From an uncultured Anaerolineales bacterium (lineage in GTDB: Bacteria > Chloroflexota > Anaerolineae > Anaerolineales > UBA11579), in NCBI GenBank assembly GCA_965370435.1, contig CBDUUP010000002.1:1-40327 (forward strand): 40,327 bases of DNA, written 5' to 3'. Positions within the stretch are counted from its first letter, which is position 1. The number at the start of each line of letters is the position of its first letter. The position numbers and the translations under genes are program-made. Below the pieces are notes generated by a model. The model did not search any database. It was not told the origin of the DNA and saw only the letters and a program-made list of their open reading frames with translations. Positions 7,705 through 30,300 of this stretch are shown here, in pieces.

Positions 7705-7748
7705 TTGACCTATGCCTGACTGCAGTTATAATTCAGTAACTGAATTTT
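7705..7748 (+). promoter_or_regulatory. Sigma70-like promoter with an inverted-repeat operator upstream of the MarR-type regulator gene
   Basis: TTGACC (7705-7710), 16-nt spacer, TATAAT (7727-7732). Inverted repeat AATTCAG (7730-7736) / CTGAATT (7740-7746). It shares AGTTATAATTCAG-N3-CTGAATT with the gmd promoter. Confidence 0.65.
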
Positions 7749-7758: not shown

Positions 7759-8244
7759 ATGGACAAACAAATCGAAGCCCATTCGGAAACCGCCCTCAAC
7801 TTGCTTGAGCGGATAGAGCACGACCCGGACGTAACCCAGGCCTCCCTGGCATCCCAGTTGGGCGTGGCGGTCGGCACGGTCAACTGGCACCTCAAACGCC
7901 TGGTAGCCAAGGGATACGTGAAAGTTAAACGCGCCGAGCGGAAGAAGCTGCGCTACATCATCACCGGCAAAGGGATTTCGCTGCGCGCCAGGCTGACGGT
8001 CAAATTCATCGAGAATTCTTTCAAACTGTACCGTCGGACCCGCAAGAGCGTGGCCGGCTTATTAAATGAAGTGCGTGCGGCAGGCTTTGACTCCGTGAGC
8101 ATTCAAGGCCAGGGCGACGTCGCCGATATCTGCCGTCTATCCTGCCTGGAGCAAGGCGTCACCGTGGTGGAGAATGCCAACTCCCCGGTTCTGGAGGTGG
8201 ACGGCCTGAAAGTGGTTCTGCACCTGGAGGAAATCCATGAGTGA
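7759..8244 (+). CDS. Winged-helix transcriptional regulator, EPS-associated MarR-family type, with a ~55-aa C-terminal extension
   Basis: The segment TQASLASQLGVAVGTVNWHLKRLVAKGYVKVKRAERKKLRYIITGKGISLRARLT matches the pattern of EPS-associated MarR regulators (HTH followed by the 'K..Y.LT.KG' wing). Confidence 0.75.
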   Translation: MDKQIEAHSETALNLLERIEHDPDVTQASLASQLGVAVGTVNWHLKRLVAKGYVKVKRAERKKLRYIITGKGISLRARLTVKFIENSFKLYRRTRKSVAGLLNEVRAAGFDSVSIQGQGDVADICRLSCLEQGVTVVENANSPVLEVDGLKVVLHLEEIHE

Positions 8245-9250
8245 ACCTGGACACGTTCTGATCACCGGAGGGGCCGGATATGTCGGCTCGGTGTTGGCCG
8301 GGGAATTGCTGCGGGCCGGTTACCGGGTGACGGTGATTGATGACCTGCTCTTCGGCGGCGATTCGCTGATCGCCTATCTATCCCATCCCAACTTCTATTT
8401 CGTCAAAGCCAACGTGTGGGAGTCACGCGCTATCCGCGATTCGGCGCCGGAGAGGTGGCCGGTCCCCCAGGCGGTGATCCATCTGGCGGGCATCGTCGGC
8501 TTTCCGGCTTGCCAGGCGGTGGGGCGGCAAGTGGCCTGGCGTTACAACGTGGAGGCCACCCAGCGGGTATTCGAGCAGTCCGAGCATCTGGGCGTGGCCC
8601 GGTTCATCTACGCTTCAACCTACAGCAATTATGGCCTTTCCCCGGATGGGGAGCCGGTCACCGAAGATTCGCCCCTCAACCCCCAATCGCTTTACGCCGA
8701 GACCAAGATCGCCTCCGAACGCTACTTGCTCGGCCAGATCGAGGCCGCCTGCGCCCCGTTGATCTTCCGCGTCGCCACCTTGTATGGTTTGTCCCCTCGC
8801 ACCCGCTTTGACCTGATCGTCAACCAGTTCGTGCTGGAGGCCTACACCAAGCGCGAGCTGTTGATCTACCAGCGCGGGTATTCGCGCTCCTTTTTGCATG
8901 TGCGGGACGCGGTGGGCGGCATCATGCTGGGGCTGGAAGCGCCGGACGAGAAGGCCCGCGGCCAGGTGTACAACCTGGGCATGGACGAGGGCAACCACAC
9001 CAAAGACGAGGTGGTAGCCTTGATCTTGAAACGCCTGCCAGAGACTACGGTGCGCTACAAAGACCTCACTTTCGGCGGCGACATGCGAGACATCACCGTC
9101 TCCTTTGAGAAGATACGGGACCAGTTGAACTTCAAAACCGAATTGACTGTGGATGACGGCGTGCGGGAAGTTTTGCACGCCTTGCGTCATGGCCTGATCC
9201 GCAGCCCCCAAGACCAGCGTTATCGCAACGCCCAATTTATCGTGCAATGA
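8237..9250 (+). CDS. NAD-dependent epimerase/dehydratase (extended SDR), specificity unknown
   Basis: VLITGGAGYVGS Rossmann motif, ASTYSNYG, and YAETK (YxxxK). The ATG overlaps the regulator stop by 8 nt. Confidence 0.8.
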   Translation: MSEPGHVLITGGAGYVGSVLAGELLRAGYRVTVIDDLLFGGDSLIAYLSHPNFYFVKANVWESRAIRDSAPERWPVPQAVIHLAGIVGFPACQAVGRQVAWRYNVEATQRVFEQSEHLGVARFIYASTYSNYGLSPDGEPVTEDSPLNPQSLYAETKIASERYLLGQIEAACAPLIFRVATLYGLSPRTRFDLIVNQFVLEAYTKRELLIYQRGYSRSFLHVRDAVGGIMLGLEAPDEKARGQVYNLGMDEGNHTKDEVVALILKRLPETTVRYKDLTFGGDMRDITVSFEKIRDQLNFKTELTVDDGVREVLHALRHGLIRSPQDQRYRNAQFIVQ

Positions 9251-9305
9251 TTTGCGTCACACGATTGAGAGAAATTATCAAAATGAAAGCTATTTCAAAC
9301 TTTTT

Positions 9306-9382
9306 ACCACAGAGACACAGAGTTCACAGAGTTTTTAAGCTTTTCTCTCTAAGCGAAGCGACGCACTCTGTGTCTCTGTGGT
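9306..9382. repeat. Hairpin repeat element, CACAGAGA subtype (perfect 17-bp inverted repeat, 43-nt spacer)
   Basis: ACCACAGAGACACAGAG (9306-9322) is the exact reverse complement of CTCTGTGTCTCTGTGGT (9366-9382). Each arm is itself a tandem of 8-nt CACAGAGA units. Confidence 0.85.
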
Positions 9383-9440
9383 GATATGTTTATAGATTTT
9401 GCATAATTAGATAATCGAAAACAACAATGAAGAGGTAGAC

Positions 9441-10397
9441 ATGGCAGAGAGAGATTTTTGGAAAGACCGGCGAGTTTGTGTCACAGGAGGGGCGGGGTTC
9501 TTGGGGTCGTTCATCCTGGAAAAGCTGGAAGAACGCGGGGCGGAAGACGTTTTCGTCCCCCACATTGAGGACTTCGACCTGACCCGGATGGAGGACATCA
9601 ACCGTATGCTGGACGAGGCCAAGCCGGACCTCATAATCCACCTGGCCGCGCTGGCGGGCGGCATCGGCATCAACCAAGAACGTCCGGCGGATTTCTTCTA
9701 TTATAACCTGATGATGGGTGTTCCGCTGATGCACCGCGCCTGCGAGGTTGACGTGGAGAAATTCATCGCCATCGGCACAGTCTGCGCCTACCCCAAGAAC
9801 ACTCCCATTCCTTTTAAAGAGGAGAATCTCTGGAAGGGCTACCCGGAGGAGACCAACGCGCCCTACGGGTTAGCCAAGAAGATGCTGCTGGTGCAGGCCC
9901 AGGCCTACCGCGAGCAGTACGGCTTCAACGCCATTTACCTGCTGCCGGTCAACCTCTACGGCCCCCGGGACAACTTCAACCTGGAGACCTCCCACGTCAT
10001 CCCGGCCCTGATCCGAAAGTGCATTGACGCCCAGGCGCTGGGCGACAAGGAGATCGTGGTGTGGGGCACCGGTTCCCCGACCCGCGAGTTCATCTACGCC
10101 GGGGACGCCGCCGAAGGCATCCTGCTGGCCGCCGAGCGGTACAACGACAGCGAGCCGGTCAACCTGGGGTCGGGCATGGAGATCAGCATCAAAGACCTGG
10201 CGATGAAGATCGTCCGCCTGACCGGGTTTGAAGGGGAGATCGTCTGGGACTCCAGCAAGCCGGACGGACAGCCGCGCCGGGCTTTGGACACCCAACGGGC
10301 CTTAGATTTTTTCGGCTTCCAGGCCCAGATGGACTTTGAAGAGGGTCTCCGCCGCACGATTGAATGGTACCGCTCTACGCTAGAGGACGGCGCGTAG
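9441..10397 (+). CDS. fcl: GDP-L-fucose synthase (GDP-4-keto-6-deoxymannose 3,5-epimerase/4-reductase)
   Basis: 318 aa. [64 protein letters not shown] and HVIPALIRK are typical Fcl/WcaG motifs. Confidence 0.9.
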
Positions 10398-10434
10398 GAA
10401 GGTCCAGTTTATAGGATTACATCCGAGAAACGCT

Positions 10435-11316
10435 ATGATGACCCCAGACCCAACCTTGATCTTCTTACATGTGCCCAAAGCCGCGGGGAGCACGCTGCAT
10501 GGGGTCATCAGCCGCCAATTTGTGCGCGGCCTCATCTATACTTGTGAGGTTGCGCGCCCGGAAAAGGTCATCGCCAACTTCAGGCAGCGTCATGGCCCTA
10601 CCGAAGAGCGCATACAGATGTTCAGCGGCCACATGCAGTTCGGATTGCACGAGTATATTTCCCGGCCCTGCTCCTATCTCGCCATCTTGCGCGACCCCAT
10701 CGAACGGGCCATATCCCATTATCATTATTTCTTGCGCATGCCCAAACTCCGGCTGCACCAGAAGGTCGAGGGGAAAGAGATCAGCTTTCAGGAATACGTC
10801 TCCGGCGGCATCACCCGTGAAATGGATAACGGCCAGACCCGCATCCTGGCGGGCGCAAAGGGCGTGCCTTTTGGAGGAAGCGCCCAGGAGATGCTGGAGC
10901 GGGCCAAAGCCAACATGCAAAAACACTTCGCCCTGGTAGGGCTGACCGAACGGTTTGACCAGATGTTGATTTTGCTGCGCTATATCCTGGGCTGGCGGAA
11001 CCTGTACTATTACAAGGCCAACGTCACCCGCAACCGCCCGCGCCGGGAGGATTTCCCCGCGGAAACCATTCGTATCATAGAAGAACACAACCAGTTGGAT
11101 CTGGCTCTTTATGCGCATGCGCAAAAGGTGTTTGACCATAAGGCCGCCCAACTGGACTCCTTTGAAAGCGAATTACAAACCTTCCAGGCCCGCAACCGGC
11201 GTTTTGGTTGGATCCTGTCCCGCACGTTGAGCCTGTGGATGCGGGGGAGGTCGTTGGCTTATAGTTTATCTTCTGGTTCTGGCCGGGGAGCGGCCTCAGA
11301 GAAGGGTGTCAATTAA
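10435..11316 (+). CDS. Sulfotransferase, family-2 type (Sulfotransfer_2-like)
   Basis: FLHVPKAAGSTL (PAPS 5'-phosphosulfate-binding loop type), ILRDPIERAISHYHY, and ALVGLTERFDQMLILL. It is a paralogue of the next gene. Confidence 0.75.
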   Translation: MMTPDPTLIFLHVPKAAGSTLHGVISRQFVRGLIYTCEVARPEKVIANFRQRHGPTEERIQMFSGHMQFGLHEYISRPCSYLAILRDPIERAISHYHYFLRMPKLRLHQKVEGKEISFQEYVSGGITREMDNGQTRILAGAKGVPFGGSAQEMLERAKANMQKHFALVGLTERFDQMLILLRYILGWRNLYYYKANVTRNRPRREDFPAETIRIIEEHNQLDLALYAHAQKVFDHKAAQLDSFESELQTFQARNRRFGWILSRTLSLWMRGRSLAYSLSSGSGRGAASEKGVN

Positions 11317-11317
11317 G

Positions 11318-12169
11318 ATGAACGCTTCCGCGCCGCTGGTGATCTTCCTGCACATCCCCAAGACCGCCGGGACCACCTTGCACCTTATCATGGCCCAGCA
11401 GTACGATCCCTGGGTGGTCTATCATTTTGCCAACAACCGCCCCTCCAAAGCGATCCATGATTTCCGGGCGCTGCCGCAAACCCGCCAGGAGGGCATGACG
11501 GCCTTGTACGGTCACGTTCCCTTCGGCCTGCACGAACACCTGGACCGGCCCTGCAAGTACATCACCATTCTCCGCGATCCGGTGGAGCGGATCATCTCCA
11601 ACTACTATTTTGTACTGCGCAGAGAGCGGCATTTTGCCCACCAGGGCGTGCGGGACGGCCAGATGTCGCTCAAGGATTTCGTCACCAGCAATATCGTGCC
11701 CCGAATGGACAACACCATGACCCGCATGTTGGCTGGTGCGCGGCGCATCCCCTTTGGCGAATGCCCTCCTGAGTTGTTGGAGGAGGCCCAGGCCAACCTC
11801 CGAGATCATTTCGCCCTGGTAGGACTCACCGAGCGGTTTGACGAAACCCTGATGCTCTTGCGCTCCATGCTCGGCTGGCCGGAGCCGTATTACGCCCGAT
11901 TCAACGTCACCCCCAACCGGCCCCGCCAGGCTGAGATCCCCGCCGACACCCTGAGCGCCATTGAAGAGATCAACCATCTGGATGTTGAATTGTACCGGCA
12001 CGTTCAACAATTGTTCGAGGAGAAGATCAGCCAGATGGATGGCTTTGACCGCCAGCTTCAGGCGTTCAAGGCACGCAACCAACGCTATGGCAAGCTCTTT
12101 TTCTCCTTCCGGCGCACGCTGGCCCGCGGCAAGAAGTTGTTCTACCGGATCACGCGAGACTACGAATAG
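11318..12169 (+). CDS. Sulfotransferase, family-2 type (tandem paralogue)
   Basis: FLHIPKTAGTTL, ILRDPVERIISNYYF, and ALVGLTERFDETLMLL. Colinear similarity to 10435-11316 along the whole length. ATG 11318 lies 1 nt after the upstream stop; the track's GTG 11306 is an alternative start. Confidence 0.75.
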   Translation: MNASAPLVIFLHIPKTAGTTLHLIMAQQYDPWVVYHFANNRPSKAIHDFRALPQTRQEGMTALYGHVPFGLHEHLDRPCKYITILRDPVERIISNYYFVLRRERHFAHQGVRDGQMSLKDFVTSNIVPRMDNTMTRMLAGARRIPFGECPPELLEEAQANLRDHFALVGLTERFDETLMLLRSMLGWPEPYYARFNVTPNRPRQAEIPADTLSAIEEINHLDVELYRHVQQLFEEKISQMDGFDRQLQAFKARNQRYGKLFFSFRRTLARGKKLFYRITRDYE

Positions 12170-12171
12170 AT

Positions 12172-13029
12172 ATGACAACTGACACACCTTTGACCGAACC
12201 CAAGACCGAAATCCAGCCCCTCATCCTGCGGCCCTCGCGAGGTTGGGTCTCTCTGAACCTGCGCGACTTGTGGCTGTACCGCGAGCTGATCTATTTCCTC
12301 ACCTGGCGGGACATCAAGGTGCGCTACAAGCAGACCTTGTTGGGCGCGGCCTGGGCCATCATCCAGCCGCTGCTCAACATGGTGGTGCTGACCGTCATTT
12401 TCGGCAGCCTGGCGGGATTATCATCGGAAGGGTATCCGCGCCCGGTTTTCATCCTGGTGGCGCTGCTGCCCTGGGGATTGTTCTCCAAAGCCTTGAGCGA
12501 TTCGGGGCGTTCGATGCTGGCGAACCGCAACATCATCACCCGCATCTACTTCCCCCGCTTGATTATCCCCCTGGCCTCGGTGTTGGGCGGCGTGGTGGAT
12601 TTTCTCATCGCCTTTGTGGTCTTGCTGCTGATGATGGCCTATTACAAATTGATTCCCACCGTGGCGGTATGGACGCTGCCCCTCTTCGTCCTGCTGGCGG
12701 TCTTCACCGCCCTGGGCGTGGGCCTGTGGCTTTCGGCCCTCAACGTCGCCTACCGGGACGTGGGCTACGTCTTGCCGTTCATGACCCAACTCTGGCTGTT
12801 GATAACCCCGGTGGGCTACTCCTCCACCGAGATCCCGGAGCAGTGGCAGATGCTCTACGCCCTCAACCCTATGGTGGGCGTGGTGGATGGCTTCCGCTGG
12901 GCCTTATTAGGCACCGATACCGGCCCCGGCCCGACCATGCTGGTTTCGGTGACGGTGGCATTGGTATTGCTGGTCAGCGGCTTGATCTATTTCCGGCGCA
13001 TGGAGCGCACTTTTGCGGACACGGTGTAA
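12172..13029 (+). CDS. wzm: ABC-2 type polysaccharide exporter permease (Wzm/TagG-like)
   Basis: 285 aa. LWLYRELIYFLTWRDIKVRYKQTLLGAAWAIIQPL is the canonical ABC-2 N-terminal motif. About 6 TM segments. Confidence 0.9.
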   Translation: MTTDTPLTEPKTEIQPLILRPSRGWVSLNLRDLWLYRELIYFLTWRDIKVRYKQTLLGAAWAIIQPLLNMVVLTVIFGSLAGLSSEGYPRPVFILVALLPWGLFSKALSDSGRSMLANRNIITRIYFPRLIIPLASVLGGVVDFLIAFVVLLLMMAYYKLIPTVAVWTLPLFVLLAVFTALGVGLWLSALNVAYRDVGYVLPFMTQLWLLITPVGYSSTEIPEQWQMLYALNPMVGVVDGFRWALLGTDTGPGPTMLVSVTVALVLLVSGLIYFRRMERTFADTV

Positions 13030-14309
13030 TGACGATGTCTGATATAGCTATTCGAGTTGAGAATTTGGGCAAGCGCTACCGGATCGGGGCCTATCAGGAC
13101 AAATACCGCACGCTGCGCGATTCCCTGGTGGAGGCGGTCACCTGGCCGGTGCGCCGCCTGCGGGGGCAGCTTCCGCCTTCCACCAACATCATCTGGGCCT
13201 TGCGGGAGATCACCTTCGAAGTGCCCCGCGGCCAGGTGTTGGGCGTGATCGGCCGCAACGGGGCGGGCAAAAGCACCCTGCTCAAGGTGCTCTCCAGAGT
13301 CACCGAGCCGACCGAGGGCTATGCCGAGATCTATGGGCGGGTGGGTTCCCTGCTGGAGGTGGGCACCGGCTTCCACCCCGAACTGACCGGGCGGGAGAAC
13401 ATCTACCTCAACGGCGCCATCCTGGGGATGCGGCGGGCTGAGATCAATCGCAAGTTCGATGAGATCGTGGACTTTTCGGGCATCGAGAAGTTCATTGATA
13501 CCCCGGTCAAACGCTATTCGAGCGGGATGTACCTGCGGCTGGCCTTCTCGGTGGCCGCTCATCTGGAGCCAGAGATATTGGTGGTGGATGAGGTCTTGGC
13601 GGTCGGGGACGCCGAGTTCCAGCGCAAGTGCCTGGGCAAGATGAGCGACGTGGCCCAGGCGGGCCGCACGGTGCTGTTCGTCAGCCACAATATGTCGGCG
13701 GTGCTGCGCCTGACCGAGCGGGCCATCGTCCTGGACAAGGGGAGGTTGATCTACGACGCCCCCTCGGGGGAGGCGGTGGACCATTACCTCTCCTCGGGGT
13801 TCTCCCAGGCCGGGGAACGAATCTGGGAAGCGGACGCTATCCCTCCCGGAGCGGCCCCCCTGCGCCCGGTCGCCCTGCGAGTCTGCGACCCAACCGGCCA
13901 GGTGGCCGACACCTTCCGCTCGGTGGAGCCGGTGACAATTGAGATGGAATATCAGTTGGATGAACCCATTCAGGGGCTGCGGGTGGGCTTCTATTTAATG
14001 ACCGCCCGGGGCGAGTTCGTGATGACCTCCTTCGACACCGACGCGCCGGAGCAGTATGAACGTTACGCCGTCCGGGAGGCGGGGCGTTACGTCAGCCGAT
14101 GCACCATCCCGGCGGACTTGCTCAACGAGGGCCGCTACGTGCTGGGTGTCAACGCCAGCGTCTACCGGGTCAAGCGTTATTTCCAGGATGAGAACGCGCT
14201 GGCTTTCACCGTGGACGGCAGCGGCGCGCCGGGCATGCAGTGGCCGGAGCCGCGTCCCGGACCGGTGCGCCCGCGCCTGGATTGGCAGATCGAGGAGGCC
14301 CCCGAATGA
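13029..14309 (+). CDS. wzt: Polysaccharide ABC exporter ATP-binding protein (Wzt/TagH-like) with a ~170-aa C-terminal beta-rich extension (Wzt_C-like)
   Basis: Walker A GRNGAGKST, signature YSSGMYLRL, Walker B ILVVDE. The ATG shares 1 nt with the wzm TAA. The part of ORF 12243-14309 upstream of 13029 is an out-of-context extension. The C-terminal domain call is by length and pattern only. Confidence 0.9.
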   Translation: MTMSDIAIRVENLGKRYRIGAYQDKYRTLRDSLVEAVTWPVRRLRGQLPPSTNIIWALREITFEVPRGQVLGVIGRNGAGKSTLLKVLSRVTEPTEGYAEIYGRVGSLLEVGTGFHPELTGRENIYLNGAILGMRRAEINRKFDEIVDFSGIEKFIDTPVKRYSSGMYLRLAFSVAAHLEPEILVVDEVLAVGDAEFQRKCLGKMSDVAQAGRTVLFVSHNMSAVLRLTERAIVLDKGRLIYDAPSGEAVDHYLSSGFSQAGERIWEADAIPPGAAPLRPVALRVCDPTGQVADTFRSVEPVTIEMEYQLDEPIQGLRVGFYLMTARGEFVMTSFDTDAPEQYERYAVREAGRYVSRCTIPADLLNEGRYVLGVNASVYRVKRYFQDENALAFTVDGSGAPGMQWPEPRPGPVRPRLDWQIEEAPE

Positions 14310-15904
14310 CCCCGGTGAGCAAGGCTGCTCTCAAACAGGCTCTAGGGGAACTCCCACTGACCGCCGAAATGTATTGGGCGCTGCGCCAGGGGCGGCGCGC
14401 CCCCAAAGGCTTCTCGTTGGACCGTTTGCAGGCGGCCTTACCGGAATGGCAGCGGCAGGCGGCGGCTTCGACCTGGAAGGCAGCGGCCCCGCGCAAGGTG
14501 ATGGTCTTCTGCACCCTGCGCTATTGGATCGAGCAGGCCGCGCTGATGGGCGCGGCCCTGGCCGGGCTGGGGCACGAGGTCACCCTGGCGTATCTGCCTT
14601 ACCGCCAATGGCAGCAAGAGGTCAACCGTTTCGACCTGCGCCGCCAGCAGGCTTACCTGCGCAGCGCGCTGAAGGGCAGCGCGCCGCTGATGCAGCCTCT
14701 CTCGCTGCTGGACGTAAAAACGGACGACGCCGAACTACCCGATGAGTTGATGAAGACCCTGCACGAGATTTCGGTGCGCGACGTCCAGTACACTGAGCAA
14801 GTCGAGGACGCCGACCTGGACAGCGATCTCTACCATTTCCGCCTGGCGCGCAACACCCAGGCCGCCCGCGCCGCTTCGACCTGGATGAAGGAAAACCAAC
14901 CGGATGTAGTGATCCTCCCCAACGGCAGCATCCTGGAATTCGGGGCGGTGTACGCGGCCGCTCGAAGCCAGGGCGTGCCGGTGGTGACGTACGAGTTCGG
15001 CGAGCAGCGCGACCGCATCTGGCTGGCGCGGGACGCCGAGATCATGCACCAGGATACCGACTCGCTCTGGGCCGCGCGCCAGGACCGGGAACTGTCCCCC
15101 GATCAATTGGCCCAGGTGCAGGACTTGTTCGCCTCCCGGCAGCGGGCCGACTTGTGGGAGAATTTCTCCCGCCGCTGGCAGGGCGTGGCCGCTCAGGGCG
15201 CGGAGAAAACGCGCGCTGAATTGGGTTTGGACGAACGCCCGGTGGCATTATTGGCCGCCAACGTCATCGGCGACAGCCTGACCCTGGGGCGGCAGGTCTA
15301 TACCGAGACCATGACCGACTGGCTCCAGCGCACGGTGCGATATTTCGCCGGACGCCCGGAGGTGCAGTTGGTGGTGCGGGTTCATCCGGGCGAGCGATAC
15401 CTGACCGGCCCCTCGGTGGAGGCGGTGGTTCAGGAAGCTCTGCCCGAACTACCGGACCACATCCACGTGGTGGCATTTGACGCCCAGATCAATACCTACG
15501 ACCTGGTCGCCTTCGCCGACCTGGGGTTAGTCTACACCACCACCACCGGCATGGAGATGGCGATGAGCGGCCTGCCGGTGATCGTCTCCGGCAAGACCCA
15601 TTACGCCCGCAAGGGCTTCACCCTGGACCCGGACACCTGGGAAGAGTTCACCCAATTGGTGGATCAAGCGCTGGGCGAGACAAACGGCCAGCGGATGTCT
15701 CAAGAGCAGGTGGAGCGGGCCTGGCATTACGCCTACCGGTTCTTCTTCGATTGCCCCCGCCCCTTCCCCTGGCATTTGCTGCACGTCTGGGAGGACCTGG
15801 AGACCTGGCCGCTGGCGCGTTTGTTCAGCGAGGAGGGCCAGGCCCAGTTTGGAGAGACGTTTGCTTACTTGGCCGGTGAGCCGATAGATTGGAATATGAA
15901 CTGA
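14306..15904 (+). CDS. Capsule_synth (KpsC/KpsS)-like putative glycosyltransferase, paralogue 1
   Basis: 532 aa from the ATG that overlaps the wzt TGA (ATGA). VVRVHPGE (HP motif) and TTTTGMEMAMSGLPVIV resemble capsule polysaccharide biosynthesis family motifs. Colinear with 34052-35650. Confidence 0.5.
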   Translation: MTPVSKAALKQALGELPLTAEMYWALRQGRRAPKGFSLDRLQAALPEWQRQAAASTWKAAAPRKVMVFCTLRYWIEQAALMGAALAGLGHEVTLAYLPYRQWQQEVNRFDLRRQQAYLRSALKGSAPLMQPLSLLDVKTDDAELPDELMKTLHEISVRDVQYTEQVEDADLDSDLYHFRLARNTQAARAASTWMKENQPDVVILPNGSILEFGAVYAAARSQGVPVVTYEFGEQRDRIWLARDAEIMHQDTDSLWAARQDRELSPDQLAQVQDLFASRQRADLWENFSRRWQGVAAQGAEKTRAELGLDERPVALLAANVIGDSLTLGRQVYTETMTDWLQRTVRYFAGRPEVQLVVRVHPGERYLTGPSVEAVVQEALPELPDHIHVVAFDAQINTYDLVAFADLGLVYTTTTGMEMAMSGLPVIVSGKTHYARKGFTLDPDTWEEFTQLVDQALGETNGQRMSQEQVERAWHYAYRFFFDCPRPFPWHLLHVWEDLETWPLARLFSEEGQAQFGETFAYLAGEPIDWNMN

Positions 15905-15961: not shown

Positions 15962-16825
15962 ATGACAGAAGACACCGAAGTTAAACAGAACGTGCGCCAA
16001 TTTTACGACCAGGTCGGCTGGCAGGAGGTCGAGGGGGGCGTGTACCAGAACGCCCTCTTTGAAGACCTGCGCCCGGTCTCGCAGGCGTACGTCCATCGCT
16101 GCCACATGCGCATCCCTCGCCACATCCGCCCCCGCGGGCGTTTCCTGCTGGACGCCGGTTCCGGCCCGGTGCAGTACCCGGAATACCAGACCTATTCGCA
16201 GGGATACGATTACCGGGTCTGCGCCGACATTTCAATCGTCGCCTTGCAAGAAGCCCGGCAGCGCATCGGCGATCACGGACTGTTCGTTGTGGCTGATGTC
16301 GCCAACCTGCCTTTCAAGCGGGAGGCCTTCGAGGGCGTGGTTTCCATGCACACCATCCACCACCTGCCTCCCGACGACCACCTCCAGGCCTATGACGGGC
16401 TGTATCGGGTGTTAGCTCCGGGCTGCGCCGCGGCGGTGGTCAACGGCTGGCAGGACGCGCCCCTGATGAAGTTCCTCAAGCCTCTCGTGCGCCTGTCCAA
16501 ACGCGCTCGAAGAGGCCTCAACCGCAGGCTGGGCCAGACCCAAACGCCCAACCCGGATACCCAACCCACGCCCCAGCAAGGCCTCCGCGGCAAGACCTTC
16601 GTGAAGAAGTACGACGCTGCCTGGCTCAAGCGAGAACTGGGATCCCGGATGGCGGTTGAGATTTGGGTCTGGCGGAGCGTGAGCGTGCGCTTCATGCGCA
16701 TCTTCATTCACCGTTGGCTGGGTGGGCGGCTGTTCCTATGGCTGCTCTTCTGGATAGAAGAGCGATTCCCCCATTTCTTCGGCGAGAAGGGGCAGTATCC
16801 GTTGATCGTGATCCGTAAACCTTGA
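15962..16825 (+). CDS. Class I SAM-dependent methyltransferase with a hydrophobic C-terminal tail
   Basis: LLDAGSGPVQ (motif I), VADVANLPF..FEGVVSMHTIHHL, and LYRVLAPGC. C-terminal segment LGGRLFLWLLFWI. Confidence 0.75.
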   Translation: MTEDTEVKQNVRQFYDQVGWQEVEGGVYQNALFEDLRPVSQAYVHRCHMRIPRHIRPRGRFLLDAGSGPVQYPEYQTYSQGYDYRVCADISIVALQEARQRIGDHGLFVVADVANLPFKREAFEGVVSMHTIHHLPPDDHLQAYDGLYRVLAPGCAAAVVNGWQDAPLMKFLKPLVRLSKRARRGLNRRLGQTQTPNPDTQPTPQQGLRGKTFVKKYDAAWLKRELGSRMAVEIWVWRSVSVRFMRIFIHRWLGGRLFLWLLFWIEERFPHFFGEKGQYPLIVIRKP

Positions 16826-16879: not shown

Positions 16880-17887
16880 ATGAACTGGAATGATAAAGTT
16901 GTCCTCGTCACCGGCGGGACCGGTTCGTTCGGCAAGAAGTTTGTGGAGATCATGCTGGACGAATACCGCCCTGAAAAAGTGATCGTCTTCAGCCGGGACG
17001 AACTCAAGCAGCATGAGATGCGCACCGCCGGTTTCGACCAGCCCAACTTGCGTTATTTCATCGGCGACGTGCGCGACCAACAACGTCTGCGCCGGGCCAT
17101 GGATGGAGTGGACGTGGTGGTGCACGCCGCCGCGCTCAAGCAGGTCCCCGCCTGCGAGTACAACCCTATGGAGGCCATCAAGACCAACATCCTGGGAAGC
17201 AGCAACGTGGTGGAAGCCGCGCTGGATGCCGGGGTGAGCAAAGTGTTGGCTTTGAGCACCGATAAGGCGGTCAACCCGGTCAACCTGTATGGGGCTACCA
17301 AGCTGGCCGCCGAGAAGCTGGTGGTGCAGAGCAACGCCTACGCGGGCGGCAAGGTCACCCGCTATAGCTGCGTCCGTTATGGCAATGTGGTCGGCAGCCG
17401 GGGCAGCGTGGTTCCGCTGTTCCTCAAGCAGCGCGAGCAAGGCAAAGTCACCGTCACCGATGAGCGCATGACCCGCTTCTGGGTCTCGTTGGAGCAGGGT
17501 GTGCGTTTTGTGATCCGCTGCATCGAACAGATGCACGGCGGAGAGGTCTTCGTGCCCAAGATCCCCAGTACCACCACCGTGGACTTGGCCAGGGCCATCG
17601 CCCCGGAAGCGGAAATAGACTTCATCGGCATCCGTCCCGGCGAGAAGCTGCACGAGGTGTTGATCTCGGAGGACGAGGCCCGGGGAACCGTGGAACTTGA
17701 CGATATGTTCGTGGTGCAGCCGGTGCAGGCATTATGGTTCGGGTACGAATGGCGGGAGCTTGGCAAACCGCTGCCGGATGGTTTCCGCTACGCCAGCGAT
17801 ACCAATGAGGAACGGCTCAATCTCGACCAGATTCGAGAGATGGTCGCCCCCATCGAAGCGGCCTACAACGACGGGAGCTTAGCTTGA
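16880..17887 (+). CDS. UDP-N-acetylglucosamine 4,6-dehydratase, PseB/FlaA1/CapE-FnlA-like
   Basis: KVVLVTGGTGSFGKKFVE, VFSRDELKQHEM, GDVRD, and YGATKLAAEKL. About 335 aa, typical for this subfamily. Confidence 0.85.
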   Translation: MNWNDKVVLVTGGTGSFGKKFVEIMLDEYRPEKVIVFSRDELKQHEMRTAGFDQPNLRYFIGDVRDQQRLRRAMDGVDVVVHAAALKQVPACEYNPMEAIKTNILGSSNVVEAALDAGVSKVLALSTDKAVNPVNLYGATKLAAEKLVVQSNAYAGGKVTRYSCVRYGNVVGSRGSVVPLFLKQREQGKVTVTDERMTRFWVSLEQGVRFVIRCIEQMHGGEVFVPKIPSTTTVDLARAIAPEAEIDFIGIRPGEKLHEVLISEDEARGTVELDDMFVVQPVQALWFGYEWRELGKPLPDGFRYASDTNEERLNLDQIREMVAPIEAAYNDGSLA

Positions 17888-18804
17888 TGCGTTTATTGGT
17901 CACCGGCAGCAGCGGTTTATTGGGGTCTAACCTCTCCCTGGAGGCGGTGAAGCAGGGCCACGAGGTCTACGGCGTGGACCGCAATCCGTTGAACACCGAG
18001 ATTTTCAACCAACACCGTGCAGACCTTTTGGATCCAGGCGCGGTGGCGGAGGCCTTCGCCCAGATCAAGCCGGACTGGGTCGTTCACTGCGCCGCTCTCG
18101 CCAATCTGGAAGCCTGTGAAGCCGACCCCGACCTGGCCCATCAGATGAACGCGGACATGGCCGGGACTGTGGCGGCGGAGGCGGCCAAAGCTGGGGCGCG
18201 GATGGTGCATATTTCCACCGATGCAGTCTTTGATGGGATACGCGGCGGCTACGTTGAGACCGACGCACCCAACCCCCTCGGCGTTTACGCCCGGACCAAA
18301 TTGGCCGGGGAACATGCCGTGGCGGCTGCCCATCCAGAAGCCATCATCGCCCGGGTGAACTTCTACGGCTGGAGTCCAACCGGGGACCGCAGCCTGGCCG
18401 AGTTCTTCTTCAATAACATCTCGGCCGGGAAGAAAGTGAACGGCTTCACCGATCGTTACTTTTGCCCTATGCTGGTCAACGACCTGGTCCAAATCCTGAT
18501 GCAGATGTTGGAAGCCGGATTGCAAGGAATTTATCACACAGTCAGCGCTGAGCCGTTGAGCAAATATGCTTTCGGCCTCGTCATCGCCCGGCGGTTCGGG
18601 CTGGATGAGACCTTGATTCAGCCAATTGAATACACGCCCAGCGACCAGAACGCGGCCCGCTCCCCCAACCTGACCATGAACACCGGCAAGCTGGTCGGAG
18701 CTTTGGGCGAAGCCCCGCCCACCGTCATCTCAGGCATCCAACGCCTGTATGACTTATATAAGGAAGACTACCCGCAGAAACTGCGAGCGATGCTTAAAAA
18801 CTGA
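17887..18804 (+). CDS. RmlD-like (dTDP-4-dehydrorhamnose reductase family) NAD(P)H sugar 4-ketoreductase
   Basis: MRLLVTGSSGLLGSNL, HCAALANLEACE, and YARTKLAGE. The ATG overlaps the upstream TGA; the track start TTG 17884 is an alternative. Confidence 0.75.
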   Translation: MRLLVTGSSGLLGSNLSLEAVKQGHEVYGVDRNPLNTEIFNQHRADLLDPGAVAEAFAQIKPDWVVHCAALANLEACEADPDLAHQMNADMAGTVAAEAAKAGARMVHISTDAVFDGIRGGYVETDAPNPLGVYARTKLAGEHAVAAAHPEAIIARVNFYGWSPTGDRSLAEFFFNNISAGKKVNGFTDRYFCPMLVNDLVQILMQMLEAGLQGIYHTVSAEPLSKYAFGLVIARRFGLDETLIQPIEYTPSDQNAARSPNLTMNTGKLVGALGEAPPTVISGIQRLYDLYKEDYPQKLRAMLKN

Positions 18805-18807
18805 TCC

Positions 18808-18824
18808 ACCACAGAGACACAGAG
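18808..18824. repeat. Solo arm of the CACAGAGA hairpin element
   Basis: ACCACAGAGACACAGAG is identical to 9306-9322. No complementary arm lies nearby. Located 4 nt after the stop at 18804. Confidence 0.7.
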
Positions 18825-18846
18825 AACAACAAACTTAATTTACTAT

Positions 18847-18895
18847 CCACTGACCACTACCCACTGACAACTGCCTACTGCCTACTGACAACTGG
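18847..18895. repeat. Seven in-phase heptamers (CCACTGA-type tandem array)
   Basis: CCACTGA CCACTAC CCACTGA CAACTGC CTACTGC CTACTGA CAACTGG. The array ends in the GGAG RBS of the 18903 gene. Confidence 0.75.
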
Positions 18896-18902
18896 AGCGC
18901 CT

Positions 18903-19970
18903 ATGGAAATAAAAATTGGAGACCGCCTCATCGGCCTTGACCACCCCACCTACTTCATCGCCGACGTAGCTGCCAACCACGACGGCGATCTGGAGCGCGC
19001 CAAGATGCTGATCCGTCTGGCGGCGGAAGCTGGGTCCGATGCGGCCAAATTTCAGAACTTCCGCGGCCCCCAGATCGTCTCCGATTACGGATTCAGAGCC
19101 TTAGGCGGGCAGCTCTCCCACCAGGCGAGTTGGAAGAAGAGCGTGGTGGAGGTTTATGATGACGCCTCCATCCCTTTCGAGTGGACCCAGCATCTGGCCG
19201 AGGAGTGCAGCCAGGCGGGTCTGGATTATATTTCGTCTCCCTACGACGACGAAGCCATTGAAATGCTGGATCCCTACCTCCCGGCTTATAAGGCTGGTTC
19301 GGGGCTGATGTCCTGGCCGAGCGGCATAGTCCGCATGGCCGAGAAGGGCAAGCCCATCCTGATCGCCACCGGGGCGGCGGACCTCAGCGACGTGGTGCGG
19401 GCGGTGCGGATGGTGCGGGAGGTCAACGACCAGATCGTGCTGATGCAGTGCAACACCAATTACACTGCCAGCGACGAAAATTACGACCACCTGCACCTCA
19501 ATGTGCTCAAGACCTACGCCTCCCTTTTCCCCGACGTGGTTCTGGGCCTTTCCGACCACACCCACAGCGTCGCGCCGGTGTTGGGCGCAGTGACGCTGGG
19601 CGCAAGAGTGATCGAGCGCCACTTCACCGACGACAACGACCGCGAAGGGCCGGATCATAAATTTGCCCTGAACCCCGAAACCTGGGCCAACATGGTCGCA
19701 GAAACCCGCATCCTGGAACGCGCCTTAGGCTCGGCGGACAAGTTCGTGGCCGGGAACGAGAAAGACACTTATGTCGTGCAGCGACGCTGCCTGCGAGCGG
19801 CGCGGGACATCCAGGCCGGTGAAACCCTCACCCCGGAGATGGTGGAGGCCCTGCGCCCCGCCACGCCCGGCGCCATCCCGCCCTACGAGATCGAAAACGT
19901 GATCGGAACCCGCGCCCTGACCGACCTCCCTTTCGGCAAAGACCTGCGCTGGACGGATTTGGGCGTTTAA
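18903..19970 (+). CDS. NeuB-family nonulosonic/sialic acid synthase-like protein (SpsE/PseI/LegI-like) with a SAF domain
   Basis: HPTYFIADVAANHDGDLERAKMLIRLAAEAGSDAAKFQNF, VIERHFT..D..GPDH, and a C-terminal SAF-like segment (RAARDIQAGETLT). Confidence 0.8.
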   Translation: MEIKIGDRLIGLDHPTYFIADVAANHDGDLERAKMLIRLAAEAGSDAAKFQNFRGPQIVSDYGFRALGGQLSHQASWKKSVVEVYDDASIPFEWTQHLAEECSQAGLDYISSPYDDEAIEMLDPYLPAYKAGSGLMSWPSGIVRMAEKGKPILIATGAADLSDVVRAVRMVREVNDQIVLMQCNTNYTASDENYDHLHLNVLKTYASLFPDVVLGLSDHTHSVAPVLGAVTLGARVIERHFTDDNDREGPDHKFALNPETWANMVAETRILERALGSADKFVAGNEKDTYVVQRRCLRAARDIQAGETLTPEMVEALRPATPGAIPPYEIENVIGTRALTDLPFGKDLRWTDLGV

Positions 19971-19997
19971 CGTTCTAACGTTTAAACGTTTAACGAT
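19969..19997. repeat. Short tandem of ~8-nt units carrying the AACGTT palindrome
   Basis: AACGTT at 19969, 19977 and 19985, and AACGAT at 19992. This fills the whole 28-nt gap between the neuB-like and GT4 genes. Confidence 0.6.
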
Positions 19998-19998
19998 T

Positions 19999-21105: not shown

Positions 21106-21168
21106 CCACGAAGACACGAAGTCACTAAGAAAAAACAAAAAAACTTTGTGTCTTGGTGTCTTTGTGGT
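21105..21168. repeat. Hairpin repeat element, CACGAAGA/CACAAAGA subtype (~25-bp imperfect stem, A-rich loop)
   Basis: ACCACGAAGACACGAAGTCACTAAG, then AAAAAACAAAAAAA, then CTTTGTGTCTTGGTGTCTTTGTGGT. By hand alignment it is ~88% identical to the reverse complement of 31151-31210. It starts on the last base of the TAA stop. Confidence 0.8.
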
Positions 21169-21185
21169 AAGAAAATGAGAAACGA

Positions 21186-26738: not shown

Positions 26739-26739
26739 G

Positions 26740-27737: not shown

Positions 27738-27741
<4 letters not shown>
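26740..27741 (+). CDS. Sulfotransferase (Sulfotransfer_1/3-type, PAPS-dependent)
   Basis: FICGHPKSGTSLL (5'-PSB), LVRDPRDNYVS (3'-PB), and IGRWKNDL. First ATG at 26740; the track's GTG 26731 is an alternative. Confidence 0.8.

Positions 27742-30300
<2,559 letters not shown>

Follow-up and report, generated by a model that had tools for sequence, protein, structure and literature searches.

A lineage-specific pair of sulfotransferase genes beside a conserved Wzm/Wzt exporter in an Anaerolineales bacterium probably decorates the exported glycan rather than marking it for export

Introduction

In the window, by which we mean the whole 40,327-nucleotide stretch of DNA analysed here from an uncultured Anaerolineales bacterium, two sulfotransferase genes (ST1 and ST2) directly precede wzm and wzt, and the Wzt protein carries a long C-terminal extension. 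This arrangement raises the question of whether sulfate added by ST1 and ST2 is the terminal cap that the Wzt extension reads before the glycan is exported. A sequence-only reading of the region had suggested that this may be so, with methylation by one of three methyltransferases as an alternative cap, and had raised the idea of a carbohydrate-binding domain (CBD) specific for sulfate. The three Wzt CBDs that have been studied biochemically (8DKY with 3-O-methyl-mannose, 5HNO for a Kdo-capped saccharide, and 2R5O) all recognise a modification at the terminus (PMC9445017).

Results

ST1 and ST2 are packed against wzm and wzt

The block in question consists of the following features.

10435..11316, + strand: ST1, family-2 (HS2ST/Gal3ST-like) PAPS-dependent sulfotransferase, 293 aa (PF06990 42.2 bits, PF03567 31.6 bits)
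11318..12169, + strand: ST2, paralogue of ST1 and second gene of the insertion (Pfam, pairwise alignment)
12172..13029, + strand: wzm, ABC-2 permease (ABC2_membrane PF01061, 74.7 bits)
13029..13742, + strand: wzt, nucleotide-binding domain, aa 1-238 (ABC_tran PF00005)
13743..14309, + strand: wzt, linker and C-terminal CBD (Wzt_C PF14524 at aa 283-397, nt 13875-14219)

The ST1 stop codon (TAA, 11314-11316) lies 1 nt before the ATG of ST2 at 11318, the ST2 stop (TAG, 12167-12169) lies 2 nt before the ATG of wzm at 12172, and the wzm stop (TAA, 13027-13029) and wzt ATG (13029-13031) have the last A in common. All three junctions are as originally read. Inside this block no terminator-like site above chance was found, and judged by spacing only the four genes would be co-transcribed.

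ST1 and ST2 align without gaps at 126 of 274 identical positions (46 %, E = 4e-94), far above chance. Both score above the curated cut-offs for Sulfotransfer_2 (PF03567) and Gal-3-O_sulfotr (PF06990) and share the motifs FLH[VI]PK[AT]AG[ST]TL, ILRDP[IV]ER and ALVGLTERFD, which bears out their description as colinear family-2 paralogues. Each is the other's best hit, and 99 of 200 neighbour-joining bootstraps place the two as sisters; the closest database relatives of ST2 are at most 49 % identical. The top PDB match of ST1 is heparan sulfate 2-O-sulfotransferase (E = 3e-7). Its 5'-PSB motif reads PKAAGST and its 3'-PSB motif RDPIERAIS; among 25 homologues of the pair, K15 of the former, R86 and S94 of the latter, and H66 and H72 are invariant or nearly so. 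With these PAPS-binding motifs intact, ST1 and ST2 look like active PAPS-dependent carbohydrate O-sulfotransferases.

The acceptor of the pair cannot be read from sequence, and the window holds two Caps/MT/NeuB/CMP-transferase modules, the second a nonulosonic-acid module at 31-36 kb. ST1 and ST2 might then act on a lipid, a small molecule, a nucleotide sugar or the product of that second module instead of the glycan exported by Wzm/Wzt. We regard this as quite improbable, given that the pair sits between a sugar epimerase gene (Epi2) and wzm with successive gaps of 37, 1 and 2 nt, that its closest homologues all lie within polysaccharide loci rich in glycosyltransferases, and that a glycosaminoglycan O-sulfotransferase is its closest relative of known structure.

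Wzt ends in a recognition-type domain

The exporter was correctly recognised as Wzm/Wzt from the outset. Wzm is 50-73 % identical to its orthologues in related loci. Wzt has 426 aa, with ABC_tran at aa 58-189, the Walker A motif GRNGAGKS at aa 75 and the signature YSSGM at aa 163, and the top PDB match of its nucleotide-binding domain is Aquifex aeolicus Wzt (8DKU/7K2T, E = 4e-67). Some 176 aa follow this domain, close to the 170 first estimated, and they score 43.0 bits against Wzt_C (PF14524; cut-off 30.4), with a conserved tail, GAPGMQWPEPRPGPVRPRLDW, C-terminal to the match. An AF2 model of the CBD is a beta-sandwich (pLDDT 86.7) whose top Foldseek matches are all three solved Wzt CBDs: Aquifex 6O14/8DKY, Klebsiella O12-type 5HNO and E. 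coli O9a 2R5O. Profile and predicted fold thus agree with the recognition-type domain that had been suggested, and on both grounds the tail is a genuine carbohydrate-binding domain of the Wzt_C type, with a predicted beta-sandwich fold.

The window belongs to a locus conserved across Anaerolineae

Around this block, the window encodes the following.

7705..7732, + strand: promoter-like site upstream of the MarR gene, TTGACC, 16 nt, TATAAT (consensus match, 11/12)
7759..8244, + strand: MarR/winged-helix regulator, first gene of the conserved Anaerolineae locus (Pfam HTH_24/MarR)
8237..9250, + strand: Epi1, NAD-dependent sugar epimerase/dehydratase (Pfam Epimerase)
9441..10397, + strand: Epi2, NAD-dependent epimerase/reductase, GDP-fucose-synthase-like (Pfam Epimerase/GDP_Man_Dehyd)
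14306..15904, + strand: Caps1, KpsC/KpsS-like GT-B protein, putative CMP-ulosonic/nonulosonic-acid transferase and candidate cap-adding enzyme (PF05159)
15962..16825, + strand: MT1, SAM-dependent methyltransferase paired with Caps1, candidate cap-modifying enzyme (PF08241)
16880..21950, + strand: nonulosonic-acid module as a whole (NCBIfam, Pfam)
16880-17887, + strand: PseB (NCBIfam PseB equivalog, 488.9 bits; cut-off 407.75)
17884-18804, + strand: RmlD-like reductase
18903-19970, + strand: NeuB-family synthase (Pfam NeuB)
19999-21105, + strand: GT4 (Pfam Glycos_transf_1)
21186-21950, + strand: CMP-sugar cytidylyltransferase (Pfam CTP_transf_3)
21957-22844 and 35647-36555: further methyltransferases (profile matches)
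24745..25608, + strand: ST3, Sulfotransfer_1-type sulfotransferase, 2 nt past the GT2 gene (PF00685)
26731..27741, + strand: ST4, Sulfotransfer_3-type sulfotransferase (PF13469, 109.7 bits)
27738..30300, + strand: sulfate-activation module as a whole (Pfam)
27738-28502, + strand: TauE/SafE-family membrane protein (PF01925)
28552-30300, + strand: PAPS synthase, a bifunctional ATP sulfurylase/APS kinase (PF01747, PF01583)

The methyltransferase count of three in the earlier reading is confirmed (15962-16825, 21957-22844 and 35647-36555). The promoter-like site is the sole near-consensus one, such sites being at chance level in the region, and is a possible operon start.

Relatives of the CBD occur in at least 558 species-level genomes. 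We kept 80 genome loci with 10-kb flanks, all labelled Chloroflexota/Anaerolineae and including that of the cultured Anaerolinea thermolimosa IMO-1; the whole comparison set comprised 88 related loci, 82 searched by tblastn and 6 further ones gene-called. In the 82 loci the gene order is MarR, Epi1, Epi2, Wzm, Wzt, Caps1, MT1, PseB, RmlD-like, NeuB, GT4, CMP-transferase, with MarR in the same position in 67/82, Epi1 in 46/82 and the genes of the nonulosonic-acid module in 41-67/82. The window thus carries one example of a locus that is conserved class-wide.

Homologues of ST1 and ST2 were absent from all of these relatives (0/82 by tblastn, even at E = 0.01, and 0/6 gene-called loci). A lone marginal tblastn match of 102 aa turned out to come from a sulfotransferase of type 1/3 at another position of its locus. 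In 65 of 67 loci the gene directly before wzm is Epi2 (median gap 66 nt, maximum 889 nt), and the six gene-called loci all show the same; together these are 71 of the 73 loci whose sequence extends far enough upstream. In the window the distance is 1,774 nt. Because no homologue occurs in any of the 88 loci and Epi2 abuts wzm in 71/73, the pair is an insertion between Epi2 and wzm, in this lineage only.

The CBD does not track the sulfotransferase pair

If ST1, ST2 or both sulfated the terminal non-reducing residue and so stopped chain growth, a sulfate-specific CBD would have to bind this cap before export. The packing of the pair directly against wzm-wzt, the presence of a real CBD and PAPS synthesis in the same cluster as ST1 and ST2 all fit such a mechanism, as do four metagenome loci (L084, L131, L147 and L148) in which sulfotransferases lie directly against a Wzt_C-bearing Wzm/Wzt. 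However, in 82 Anaerolineae loci without any homologue of ST1 or ST2 the CBDs share 63-72 % identity with that of the window. The window CBD is no more divergent than they are (66.0 % mean identity to the others vs 63.8 % among the others), retains 66 of 71 highly conserved columns and has the most acidic net charge among 83 CBDs (-11). By its sequence it is an ordinary, if unusually acidic, member of its family, although at about 65 % identity its specificity could have shifted. Relatives of ST1 and ST2 are also found in Wzy-, YfhO- and ABC-type glycan loci, and they adjoin a Wzt with a long tail in six loci and one without in six, so that family-2 sulfotransferases stand equally beside CBD-less exporters or other pathways. 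A further counterexample comes from Aeromonas salmonicida, where wzt and wbbB flank a gene with a sulfotransferase domain but no sulfate was found in the O-antigen (PMC4483657). Since about 90 relatives have this pump and tail but lack the pair, the tail probably does not read ST1/ST2 sulfate. Both the export-licensing role proposed for this sulfate and the sulfate-specific CBD are therefore unsupported, and we consider the mechanism highly improbable.

Caps1 is a better candidate for making the cap

Caps1 starts at the wzt stop, with 4 nt (ATGA) common to both genes. This overlap had been overlooked and extends the tight packing downstream of wzt; it is retained in five of the six gene-called relatives. 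In 70 of 72 loci Caps1 comes right after the CBD, and such a strict, translationally coupled pairing suggests a functional link. MT1 follows Caps1 in 63 of the 72 and is missing in nine.

The PF05159 match of Caps1 is marginal (22.6 bits, cut-off 20); across the family 26 of 32 members match this profile and none falls under Epimerase_2. There is also a partial NCBIfam BFO_1060 match. An AF2 model (pLDDT 82.9) gives its best TM-scores against KpsC, while its lowest Foldseek E-values are for UDP-GlcNAc 2-epimerases, which likewise have the GT-B fold. YE229-230, N319xxxD323 and HP360-361 are invariant. In sequence, motifs and predicted fold Caps1 resembles KpsC/KpsS-type transferases, whose activity it would share. 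Among the homologues of KpsC is a transferase for pseudaminic acid, and WbbB-GT99 transfers a beta-Kdo that terminates the chain (PMC12887879). No obvious UDP-sugar hydrolase for the nonulosonic-acid pathway was found in the conserved core of the locus, and Caps1 could instead be that hydrolase; it could also be a transferase that acts within the chain and does not terminate it. As far as sequence can tell, Caps1, with or without the adjacent MT1, is a better cap-making candidate than ST1/ST2, and the cap is possibly a methylation for which MT1 is the candidate enzyme.

The CBD might also have no dedicated cap to read, binding the repeating chain or serving mainly as a dimerisation or regulatory module, with length and export set otherwise. 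The window yielded neither a WbdD-like kinase/methyltransferase with a coiled-coil ruler nor a WbbB-like multidomain terminator. Strand-swapped dimerisation, as seen in the solved CBDs, may be the role of the conserved C-terminal tail, and the CBD fold is itself a predicted model. The terminal modifications bound by all three studied CBDs, and the wzt-Caps1 pairing, nevertheless make this alternative unlikely.

Sulfation by other enzymes is not rare in the locus family

Homologues of ST4 (44-52 % identity) directly follow Caps1 in 7/82 loci spanning at least three CBD lineages, and one of them takes the place of MT1, in L063. In L032 a further type-1/3 sulfotransferase follows MT1; in total a sulfotransferase adjoins Caps1/MT1 in 8/82. 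Type-1/3 sulfotransferases follow GT2 in three of the six loci reaching far enough downstream (L088, L169 and L171). Sulfation as such is thus not rare in this family. Because these enzymes are common and the 10-kb flanks of the 80 genome loci end just before the expected position of ST3/ST4, the recognised terminal epitope may carry sulfate placed by ST3/ST4-like enzymes, with ST1 and ST2 adding sulfates only along the chain. Against this, many loci have no sulfotransferase within reach (L087, L170 and L172), PAPS synthase lies within 10 kb in only 1/82, and the CBDs of ST4-positive loci form no distinct group, with only three weakly discriminating columns. We therefore hold this version of a sulfate cap to be unlikely.

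Discussion

The explanation that we favour, with some confidence, is a conserved nonulosonic-acid glycan locus in which the inserted ST1/ST2 pair decorates the glycan, is not the export signal, and the CBD reads a common Caps1-type terminus. On the cytoplasmic side of the membrane the locus would assemble a cell-surface glycan containing nonulosonic acid, for export via Wzm/Wzt. ST1 and ST2, inserted between Epi2 and wzm in this lineage and now packed into the presumed operon, would act with ST3, ST4, PAPS synthase and the TauE-like protein to place sulfate esters on the lipid-linked glycan before export; we infer this acceptor, and the ST1/ST2 sulfate would be an extra decoration on a glycan already sulfated via ST3 and ST4. 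Since the CBD is an orthologue of those in loci without the pair and has diverged no further than they have, it would read a terminal structure common to all related loci. The best candidate ligand is a residue added by Caps1 and possibly O-methylated by MT1; this proposed cap would have its parallel in the beta-Kdo with which WbbB caps chains in Klebsiella O12 and Raoultella terrigena. The export type of the locus would therefore be one that is already known.

Sulfotransferase genes adjoin the exporter genes

Two tandem family-2 sulfotransferase genes (ST1 and ST2) are packed against the genes of a Wzm/Wzt exporter. The sequence-only reading had described this block, and each of its structural statements matches the six-frame ORF list and the junction sequences. 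One overlap had been missed, between wzt and the next gene, which encodes Caps1, a KpsC/KpsS-like GT-B protein. The block reads as follows:

ST1: 10435-11316, + strand; stop codon TAA at 11314-11316, then a 1-nt gap to the ST2 ATG at 11318
ST2: 11318-12169, + strand; stop codon TAG at 12167-12169, then a 2-nt gap to the wzm ATG at 12172
wzm: 12172-13029, + strand; stop codon TAA at 13027-13029, its last A being the first base of the wzt ATG
wzt: 13029-14309, + strand; its stop overlaps the start of the Caps1 gene by 4 nt (ATGA)
Caps1 gene: 14306-15904, + strand; overlaps the wzt stop

This gene spacing suggests that the block, previously called transcriptionally fused, is co-transcribed. A consensus scan found no terminator-like sites above chance and a single strong promoter-like site, at 7705-7732, 5' of the MarR gene.

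ST1 and ST2 are 46% identical over 274 residues without a gap (E = 4e-94), and the motifs quoted for them in the sequence-only reading are common to both. ST1 matches the Pfam families PF06990 (Gal-3-O_sulfotr; 42.2 versus a cut-off of 27) and PF03567 (Sulfotransfer_2; 31.6 versus 22), as does ST2 (PF03567, 42.4 versus 22; PF06990, 41.3 versus 27). Both proteins carry the PAPS-binding 5'-PSB and 3'-PSB motifs and a conserved histidine region, and this region aligns to heparan sulfate 2-O-sulfotransferase (HS2ST). Across 25 homologues, residues P14, K15, G18, T20, R86, D87, P88, R91, S94, H66 and H72 (ST2 numbering) are invariant or conserved at 90% or more; their catalytic roles are presumably those of the corresponding HS2ST residues.

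Recent tandem duplication was considered and rejected: the two proteins are reciprocal best matches only marginally (268 versus 251-265 bits) and are sisters in 99 of 200 bootstraps. A tandem duplication is plausible, but old and weakly supported. Recent horizontal transfer was also considered and set aside, since GC3 (0.707 for ST1 and 0.796 for ST2; cluster mean 0.783, sd 0.047) carries no clear foreign signature. The nearest homologues are just 40-49% identical and come from mixed phyla, pointing to no donor. A metagenome scan with the ST alignment returned no relatives of the pair above 42% identity.

The C-terminal extension of Wzt is a predicted carbohydrate-binding domain

Wzm matches ABC2_membrane (PF01061) and Wzt, whose gene shares one nucleotide with wzm, matches ABC_tran (PF00005) at aa 58-189. 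The tail of Wzt had been proposed to be a recognition-type domain, with a profile search and structure prediction named as the checks. Both agree with the proposal. The Wzt_C profile (PF14524) matches aa 283-397 of 426 with 43.0 bits, above its cut-off of 30.4. An AlphaFold2 model of the last 188 residues (29 sequences) is beta-rich, with a mean pLDDT of 86.7 and a pTM of 0.81, and the best 17 Foldseek matches in the PDB are all Wzt carbohydrate-binding domains (CBDs) or full-length Wzt. Isolated CBD chains align with TMt values of 0.60-0.73. Among them are the Aquifex aeolicus CBD (6O14/8DKY; E = 2e-8, TMt 0.73), which in 8DKY holds 3-O-methyl-mannose, the Kdo-cap-binding O12-type CBD (5HNO/5HNP; E ~1e-6, TMt 0.62) and the Escherichia coli O9a CBD (2R5O; E = 4e-6, TMt 0.63). 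Thus, the predicted structure is a beta-sandwich like 2R5O, 5HNO and 6O14, which contradicts the possibility that the tail lacks such a fold, and at the level of the model it is confirmed as a real CBD. Among proteins of solved structure, the top sequence match of full-length Wzt is A. aeolicus Wzt (E = 4e-67), and the alignment reaches the CBD. Mapping of the Aquifex cap-pocket residues onto the window CBD was dropped because an identity of just 18-20% allows no reliable mapping.

Beyond the Wzt_C match lies a near-invariant tail, GAPGMQWPEPRxGPxRPRLxW (window 14190-14309, Wzt aa ~398-426), which is modeled with lower confidence and may be a strand swapped between CBD protomers. The RPxLxW end is retained in a CBD from a metagenome contig (L147) that is 34% identical to that of the window.

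A protein search with the Wzt tail gave 396 matches, of which the best 120 are 61-69% identical, and every taxon-labelled match is from Chloroflexota/Anaerolineae. At least 558 genomes encode a CBD relative in a scan with the tail alignment that took one genome per species. The 80 loci kept from it are all labelled Chloroflexota/Anaerolineae and include the cultured Anaerolinea thermolimosa IMO-1. Many database entries of 184-221 aa appear to be stand-alone CBD proteins ("Wzt_C-only") but were rejected as such: inspection of L001 (9307-10579) and L002 (9373-10666) revealed frameshift-fragmented genes, and the contigs of 0.5-5.4 Mb that bear these entries look like error-prone long-read assemblies.

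ST1 and ST2 are an insertion into a conserved Anaerolineae locus

Almost the whole window is taken up by a single glycan cluster, about 37 kb long and on the + strand. Its genes encode, in order:

Cluster start: GDP-mannose dehydratase, AMP-binding enzyme, 905-aa polytopic membrane protein
Next: MarR, two NAD-dependent epimerases (Epi1, Epi2), ST1, ST2, Wzm, Wzt, Caps1, methyltransferase MT1
Next: PseB, RmlD-like reductase, NeuB-family synthase, GT4, CMP-transferase
Next: methyltransferase MT2, a protein without assigned family, GT2, ST3 (Sulfotransfer_1)
Next: GFO-type oxidoreductase, ST4 (Sulfotransfer_3), TauE-like protein, bifunctional PAPS synthase
Next, a second set: CMP-transferase, NeuB fusion, Caps2, methyltransferase MT3
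Cluster end: aminoacyl-tRNA-synthetase-like protein, two acetyltransferases

All window proteins were compared with 82 related loci (L001-L082) by tblastn. The order MarR, Epi1, Epi2, Wzm, Wzt-CBD, Caps1, MT1, PseB, RmlD-like, NeuB, GT4, CMP-transferase (window 7759-21950) is conserved in these loci and in six gene-called ones (L087, L088, L169-L172). Even with the threshold relaxed to E = 0.01, no ST1/ST2 homologue appeared in the 82; the sole marginal match, in L032 (13007-13873), proved to be a type-1/3 sulfotransferase after MT1. With the gene-called loci included, homologues are absent from all 88 loci whose CBDs are 63-72% identical. Of the 67 loci that extend far enough upstream, 65 have Epi2 immediately beside wzm (median gap 66 nt, maximum 889 nt), and the same direct junction is present in all six further gene-called loci, which had been found through Caps1 homologues. 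In the window the Epi2-wzm distance is 1,774 nt and is filled exactly by ST1 and ST2. Because the pair is absent from related loci, where Epi2 adjoins wzm, it is an insertion specific to the lineage of the window.

Only one public sequencing run, a marine sediment metagenome, shares words with the ST region (8% of sampled words). Its contigs cross-map to conserved genes only, with essentially none over ST1/ST2 (window 8000-16000). The run bears on the habitat only, hinting at marine sediment as the source.

The CBD does not follow the sulfotransferase pair

The sequence-only reading had proposed that sulfation by ST1/ST2 (or methylation by one of the three methyltransferases) may be the export-licensing cap recognized by the Wzt CBD. 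The pair and the CBD do not co-vary: the 88 loci without ST1/ST2 encode closely related CBDs, and the window CBD is no outlier among them. Its mean identity to the other CBDs is 66.0%, versus 63.8% among the others, and it keeps 66 of the 71 columns conserved at 90% or more, two of the five differences being its two extra C-terminal residues. Five arginines are invariant. With a net charge of -11 it is the most acidic of 83 sequences, contrary to what recent adaptation to a sulfate-ester ligand would lead one to expect. Across the related loci, conservation of the CBD (63-72%) almost reaches that of the nucleotide-binding domain (NBD; 70-88%). The Wzt CBDs of E. coli O8 and O9a, which read different caps, are far more diverged from each other than are their NBDs. 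These comparisons do not support the sulfate of ST1/ST2 as the export-licensing cap, and we consider that role very improbable. They exclude ST1/ST2 as the conserved determinant of CBD recognition, but not sulfate in general. Literature searches turned up neither a sulfate-dependent Wzt CBD nor a description of this Anaerolineae locus.

Sulfotransferases are recurrent accessories of polysaccharide loci

ST2 has at least 1,460 homologues, none more than 49% identical; the taxon labels, which only a few of them carry, name Cyanobacteria, Chloroflexota and Dormibacteraeota. They lie in polysaccharide loci of different export types, with a fused ABC exporter (L083), Wzm/Wzt with Wzt_C (L084), YfhO (L085) or Wzy (L086). 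Of 41 loci of 6 kb or more in the metagenome scan, about 10 have a Wzm/Wzt-like exporter nearby. Among 12 Wzt proteins in metagenome ST loci, a long C-terminal tail is present in six and absent from six; therefore, adjacency of sulfotransferase and Wzm/Wzt genes is recurrent but independent of a CBD. Such adjacency fits cytoplasmic enzymes that act on polymers completed before export.

On two unrelated metagenome contigs, three or four sulfotransferase genes directly adjoin those of Wzm/Wzt proteins with Wzt_C. L148 (5989-10644) has the gene order of the window, with two family-2 sulfotransferases, a third sulfotransferase, wzm, and wzt with a strong Wzt_C match. On L147 (278-6789), four sulfotransferase genes directly follow the Wzt gene whose CBD is 34% identical to that of the window. 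No Caps1-like gene is in view on either contig. If a sulfate-reading CBD exists, loci of this type are better candidates for it than the window.

Beyond the tandem pair, which ST3 (24745-25608) and ST4 (26731-27741) bring to four sulfotransferases, the window has a dedicated PAPS supply (PAPS synthase, 28552-30300). The 10-kb flanks of the 80 genome loci stop just before the position of ST3/ST4, so that these genes could be scored only in the six loci that reach further; Sulfotransfer_1/3 genes follow GT2 in three of them (L088, L169, L171). An ST4-like Sulfotransfer_3 gene (44-52% identity) directly follows Caps1 in seven loci (L023, L027, L028, L043, L056, L063, L064), which come from at least three CBD lineages, and in L063 it stands in place of MT1. 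The Caps1/MT1 slot seems to be a hot spot for sulfotransferase gain, and type-1/3 sulfation is a common accessory of the locus family. In six of these seven loci the CBD tail motif reads GAPGKQW rather than GAPGMQW.

Caps1 and MT1 are candidate cap enzymes

Two other genes do keep company with the CBD. Of 72 loci, 70 have Caps1 after it and 63 have MT1; the 4-nt wzt/caps1 overlap recurs in five of six gene-called relatives. This conserved linkage makes Caps1 and MT1 the candidate cap enzymes. All Caps1 homologues are annotated as "hypothetical protein".

Caps1 is a single-module protein of 532 aa that matches Pfam Capsule_synth (PF05159) marginally (22.6 versus 20 bits). Among 32 members of its family, 26 match PF05159 and none is listed under the UDP-GlcNAc 2-epimerase model. 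It also has a partial match (aa 348-433, 33 bits, far under the 200-bit family cut-off) to the NCBIfam model BFO_1060, named after a member of the Tannerella forsythia pseudaminic/legionaminic-acid transferase family (PMC5420450). The AlphaFold2 model (pLDDT 82.9) has a GT-B fold, with its best TM-scores to KpsC (0.47-0.52). Single invariant motifs of the family are YE229-230, NxxxD (N319, D323) and HP360-361. YE, QXXXD and HP motifs have been described for retaining Kdo and Pse transferases (PMC12887879; PMC5420450), and NxxxD stands where QXXXD is expected. Among these enzymes, WbbB-GT99 attaches a single beta-Kdo, which stops chain growth and allows export, and a KpsC homologue transfers pseudaminic acid (PMC12887879).

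The Caps1 gene is flanked by a PseB/NeuB/CMP-transferase set, in which the PseB equivalog is followed by an RmlD-like 4-reductase and not a PseC-type aminotransferase (window 16880-18804). The conserved core shows no evident UDP-sugar hydrolase of the PseG/NeuC type. Together, the reductase in place of PseC and the lack of an evident PseG/NeuC suggest an unusual nonulosonic acid, which would be 7-hydroxy rather than 7-amino.

There are at least two other possibilities for Caps1. It could be a UDP-sugar 2-epimerase, or the missing UDP-sugar hydrolase of the nonulosonic-acid pathway; the lowest Foldseek E-values of the model are indeed to UDP-GlcNAc 2-epimerases, which share the GT-B fold. We did not adopt this assignment, as every signal at the sequence level favors the KpsC/KpsS type. 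Caps1 could also be a chain-internal transferase rather than a terminator. No WbdD- or WbbB-like multidomain protein was found in the window. In the mechanism we favor, Caps1 would add a terminal nonulosonic acid, which MT1 may methylate, and the CBD would read that terminus. ST1/ST2 would then contribute accessory decoration of the glycan. We consider it reasonably probable that ST1/ST2 are accessory and that the CBD reads a conserved Caps1/MT1-dependent terminus, the identity of the cap being the weakest part. The fuller proposal is tentative, and we rate it as rather unlikely: that the Anaerolineae Wzt CBD family reads a new cap, a possibly O-methylated nonulosonic acid added by a hitherto uncharacterized KpsC/KpsS-like single-module transferase translationally coupled to wzt, with sulfate perhaps replacing the methyl group in the case of L063 or of L147 and L148.

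Other genes of the cluster

A second nonulosonic-acid module (window 31206-36555) mirrors the Caps1-MT1 pairing. It comprises a CMP-transferase, a fusion of a NeuB-family synthase with a xylose-isomerase-like TIM-barrel (AP_endonuc_2) domain, Caps2 (a second KpsC/KpsS-like protein, 21% identical to Caps1) and MT3. The 82 loci scored by tblastn showed none of its genes in the 10 kb on either side of the CBD.

At the upstream edge, a GDP-mannose 4,6-dehydratase gene is followed by that of an AMP-binding (acyl-adenylate-forming) enzyme (window 2260-4963), with homologues of the latter in just two of the 82 related loci. The 905-aa polytopic membrane protein (window 4967-7684) has no Pfam or NCBIfam match. 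At the equivalent upstream position, related loci encode comparably large proteins (558-706 aa), several of which match PMT/PMT_2 (GT-C-like); in L170, DUF6798 proteins are encoded farther downstream. The 905-aa protein may be the enzyme that moves the exported glycan to its final acceptor. At the other edge (window 36969-39395) are a class-II aminoacyl-tRNA-synthetase-like protein (weak tRNA-synt_2b match) and GNAT- and Antibiotic_NAT-family acetyltransferases, which may transfer acyl or aminoacyl groups to an amino sugar. Homologues of the Antibiotic_NAT protein follow GT4 in 10 of the 82 loci.

Comparison with known systems

Like Klebsiella pneumoniae O12 and Raoultella terrigena (WbbB GT99; Wzt CBD 5HNO/5HNP), the window pairs Wzm/Wzt carrying a predicted C-terminal beta-sandwich CBD with a putative CMP-ulosonic-acid-type transferase of the KpsC/WbbB superfamily. 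Unlike theirs, this transferase is a single module with marginal KpsC similarity and NxxxD in place of QXXXD, and its sugar is probably a nonulosonic acid, not Kdo. To our knowledge Chloroflexota are monoderm and lack LPS, so the product of the window would not be an O-antigen.

Among solved structures, Aquifex aeolicus WzmWzt (7K2T, 8DKU) comes nearest both to full-length Wzt and to the CBD model. The cap recognized by the Aquifex CBD is 3-O-methyl-mannose or -rhamnose (PMC9445017), and the locus family of the window also has a conserved methyltransferase, MT1. The window CBD differs in its low identity to that of Aquifex and in its extra conserved tail. E. coli O9a/O8, where the pathway is cap- and ABC-transporter-dependent, shares the predicted CBD fold; unlike there, the window has no WbdD-like kinase/methyltransferase with a coiled-coil ruler, and the glycan chemistry differs.

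ST1/ST2 share with HS2ST and the galactose-3-O-sulfotransferases the 5'-PSB PKxxGxT, the 3'-PSB RDPxERxxS and a GH...H region, but are bacterial and cytoplasmic, without a membrane anchor, and the identity to HS2ST extends over only ~110 aa (E = 3e-7). A sulfotransferase-domain gene also adjoins wzt in Aeromonas salmonicida, whose O-antigen cluster has wzt, a sulfotransferase-domain ORF and the WbbB-type terminator gene wbbB in this order; no sulfate was found in the O-antigen and the role of the ORF was left open (PMC4483657). That ORF is single, of 216 aa and of another sulfotransferase type. Finally, the HP and YE motifs of Caps1, encoded beside its PseB/NeuB/CMP-transferase set, are those discussed for Acinetobacter baumannii KpsS1 and Tannerella Tanf_01245/BFO_1060-type transferases (PMC5420450; PMC12887879). 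The Tannerella enzyme, however, acts in a Wzx-type protein O-glycosylation pathway, and the Caps1 match falls far below the family cut-off.

Discussion

The exporter and its CBD belong to the known cap-dependent ABC-transporter type and the sulfotransferases to a known family. What is particular to the window is a lineage-specific extra sulfotransferase pair inserted beside the exporter genes. Three terminal modifications are known to license ABC-transporter glycan export: methyl, methyl-phosphate and beta-Kdo. A sulfate-reading CBD would be a fourth cap type, and the comparative evidence argues against it for the locus of the window.

Of greater interest than the pair is the broader locus family, which is uncharacterized and class-wide and has gained sulfotransferases repeatedly. 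Its glycan is probably capped with a nonulosonic acid. If the nonulosonic-acid cap reading is true, cap-dependent export would extend to Chloroflexota, and nonulosonic-acid and perhaps sulfate caps would join those already known. Hundreds of Anaerolineae species, a cultured one among them, share a single conserved Wzm/Wzt-CBD/Caps1/methyltransferase/nonulosonic-acid locus. Sulfation modules have been added to it repeatedly, and the window, with its four sulfotransferases, PAPS synthase and TauE-like protein, is the most heavily equipped example seen. Loci with and without sulfotransferases thus form a natural series for testing what the Wzt CBD tolerates and recognizes.
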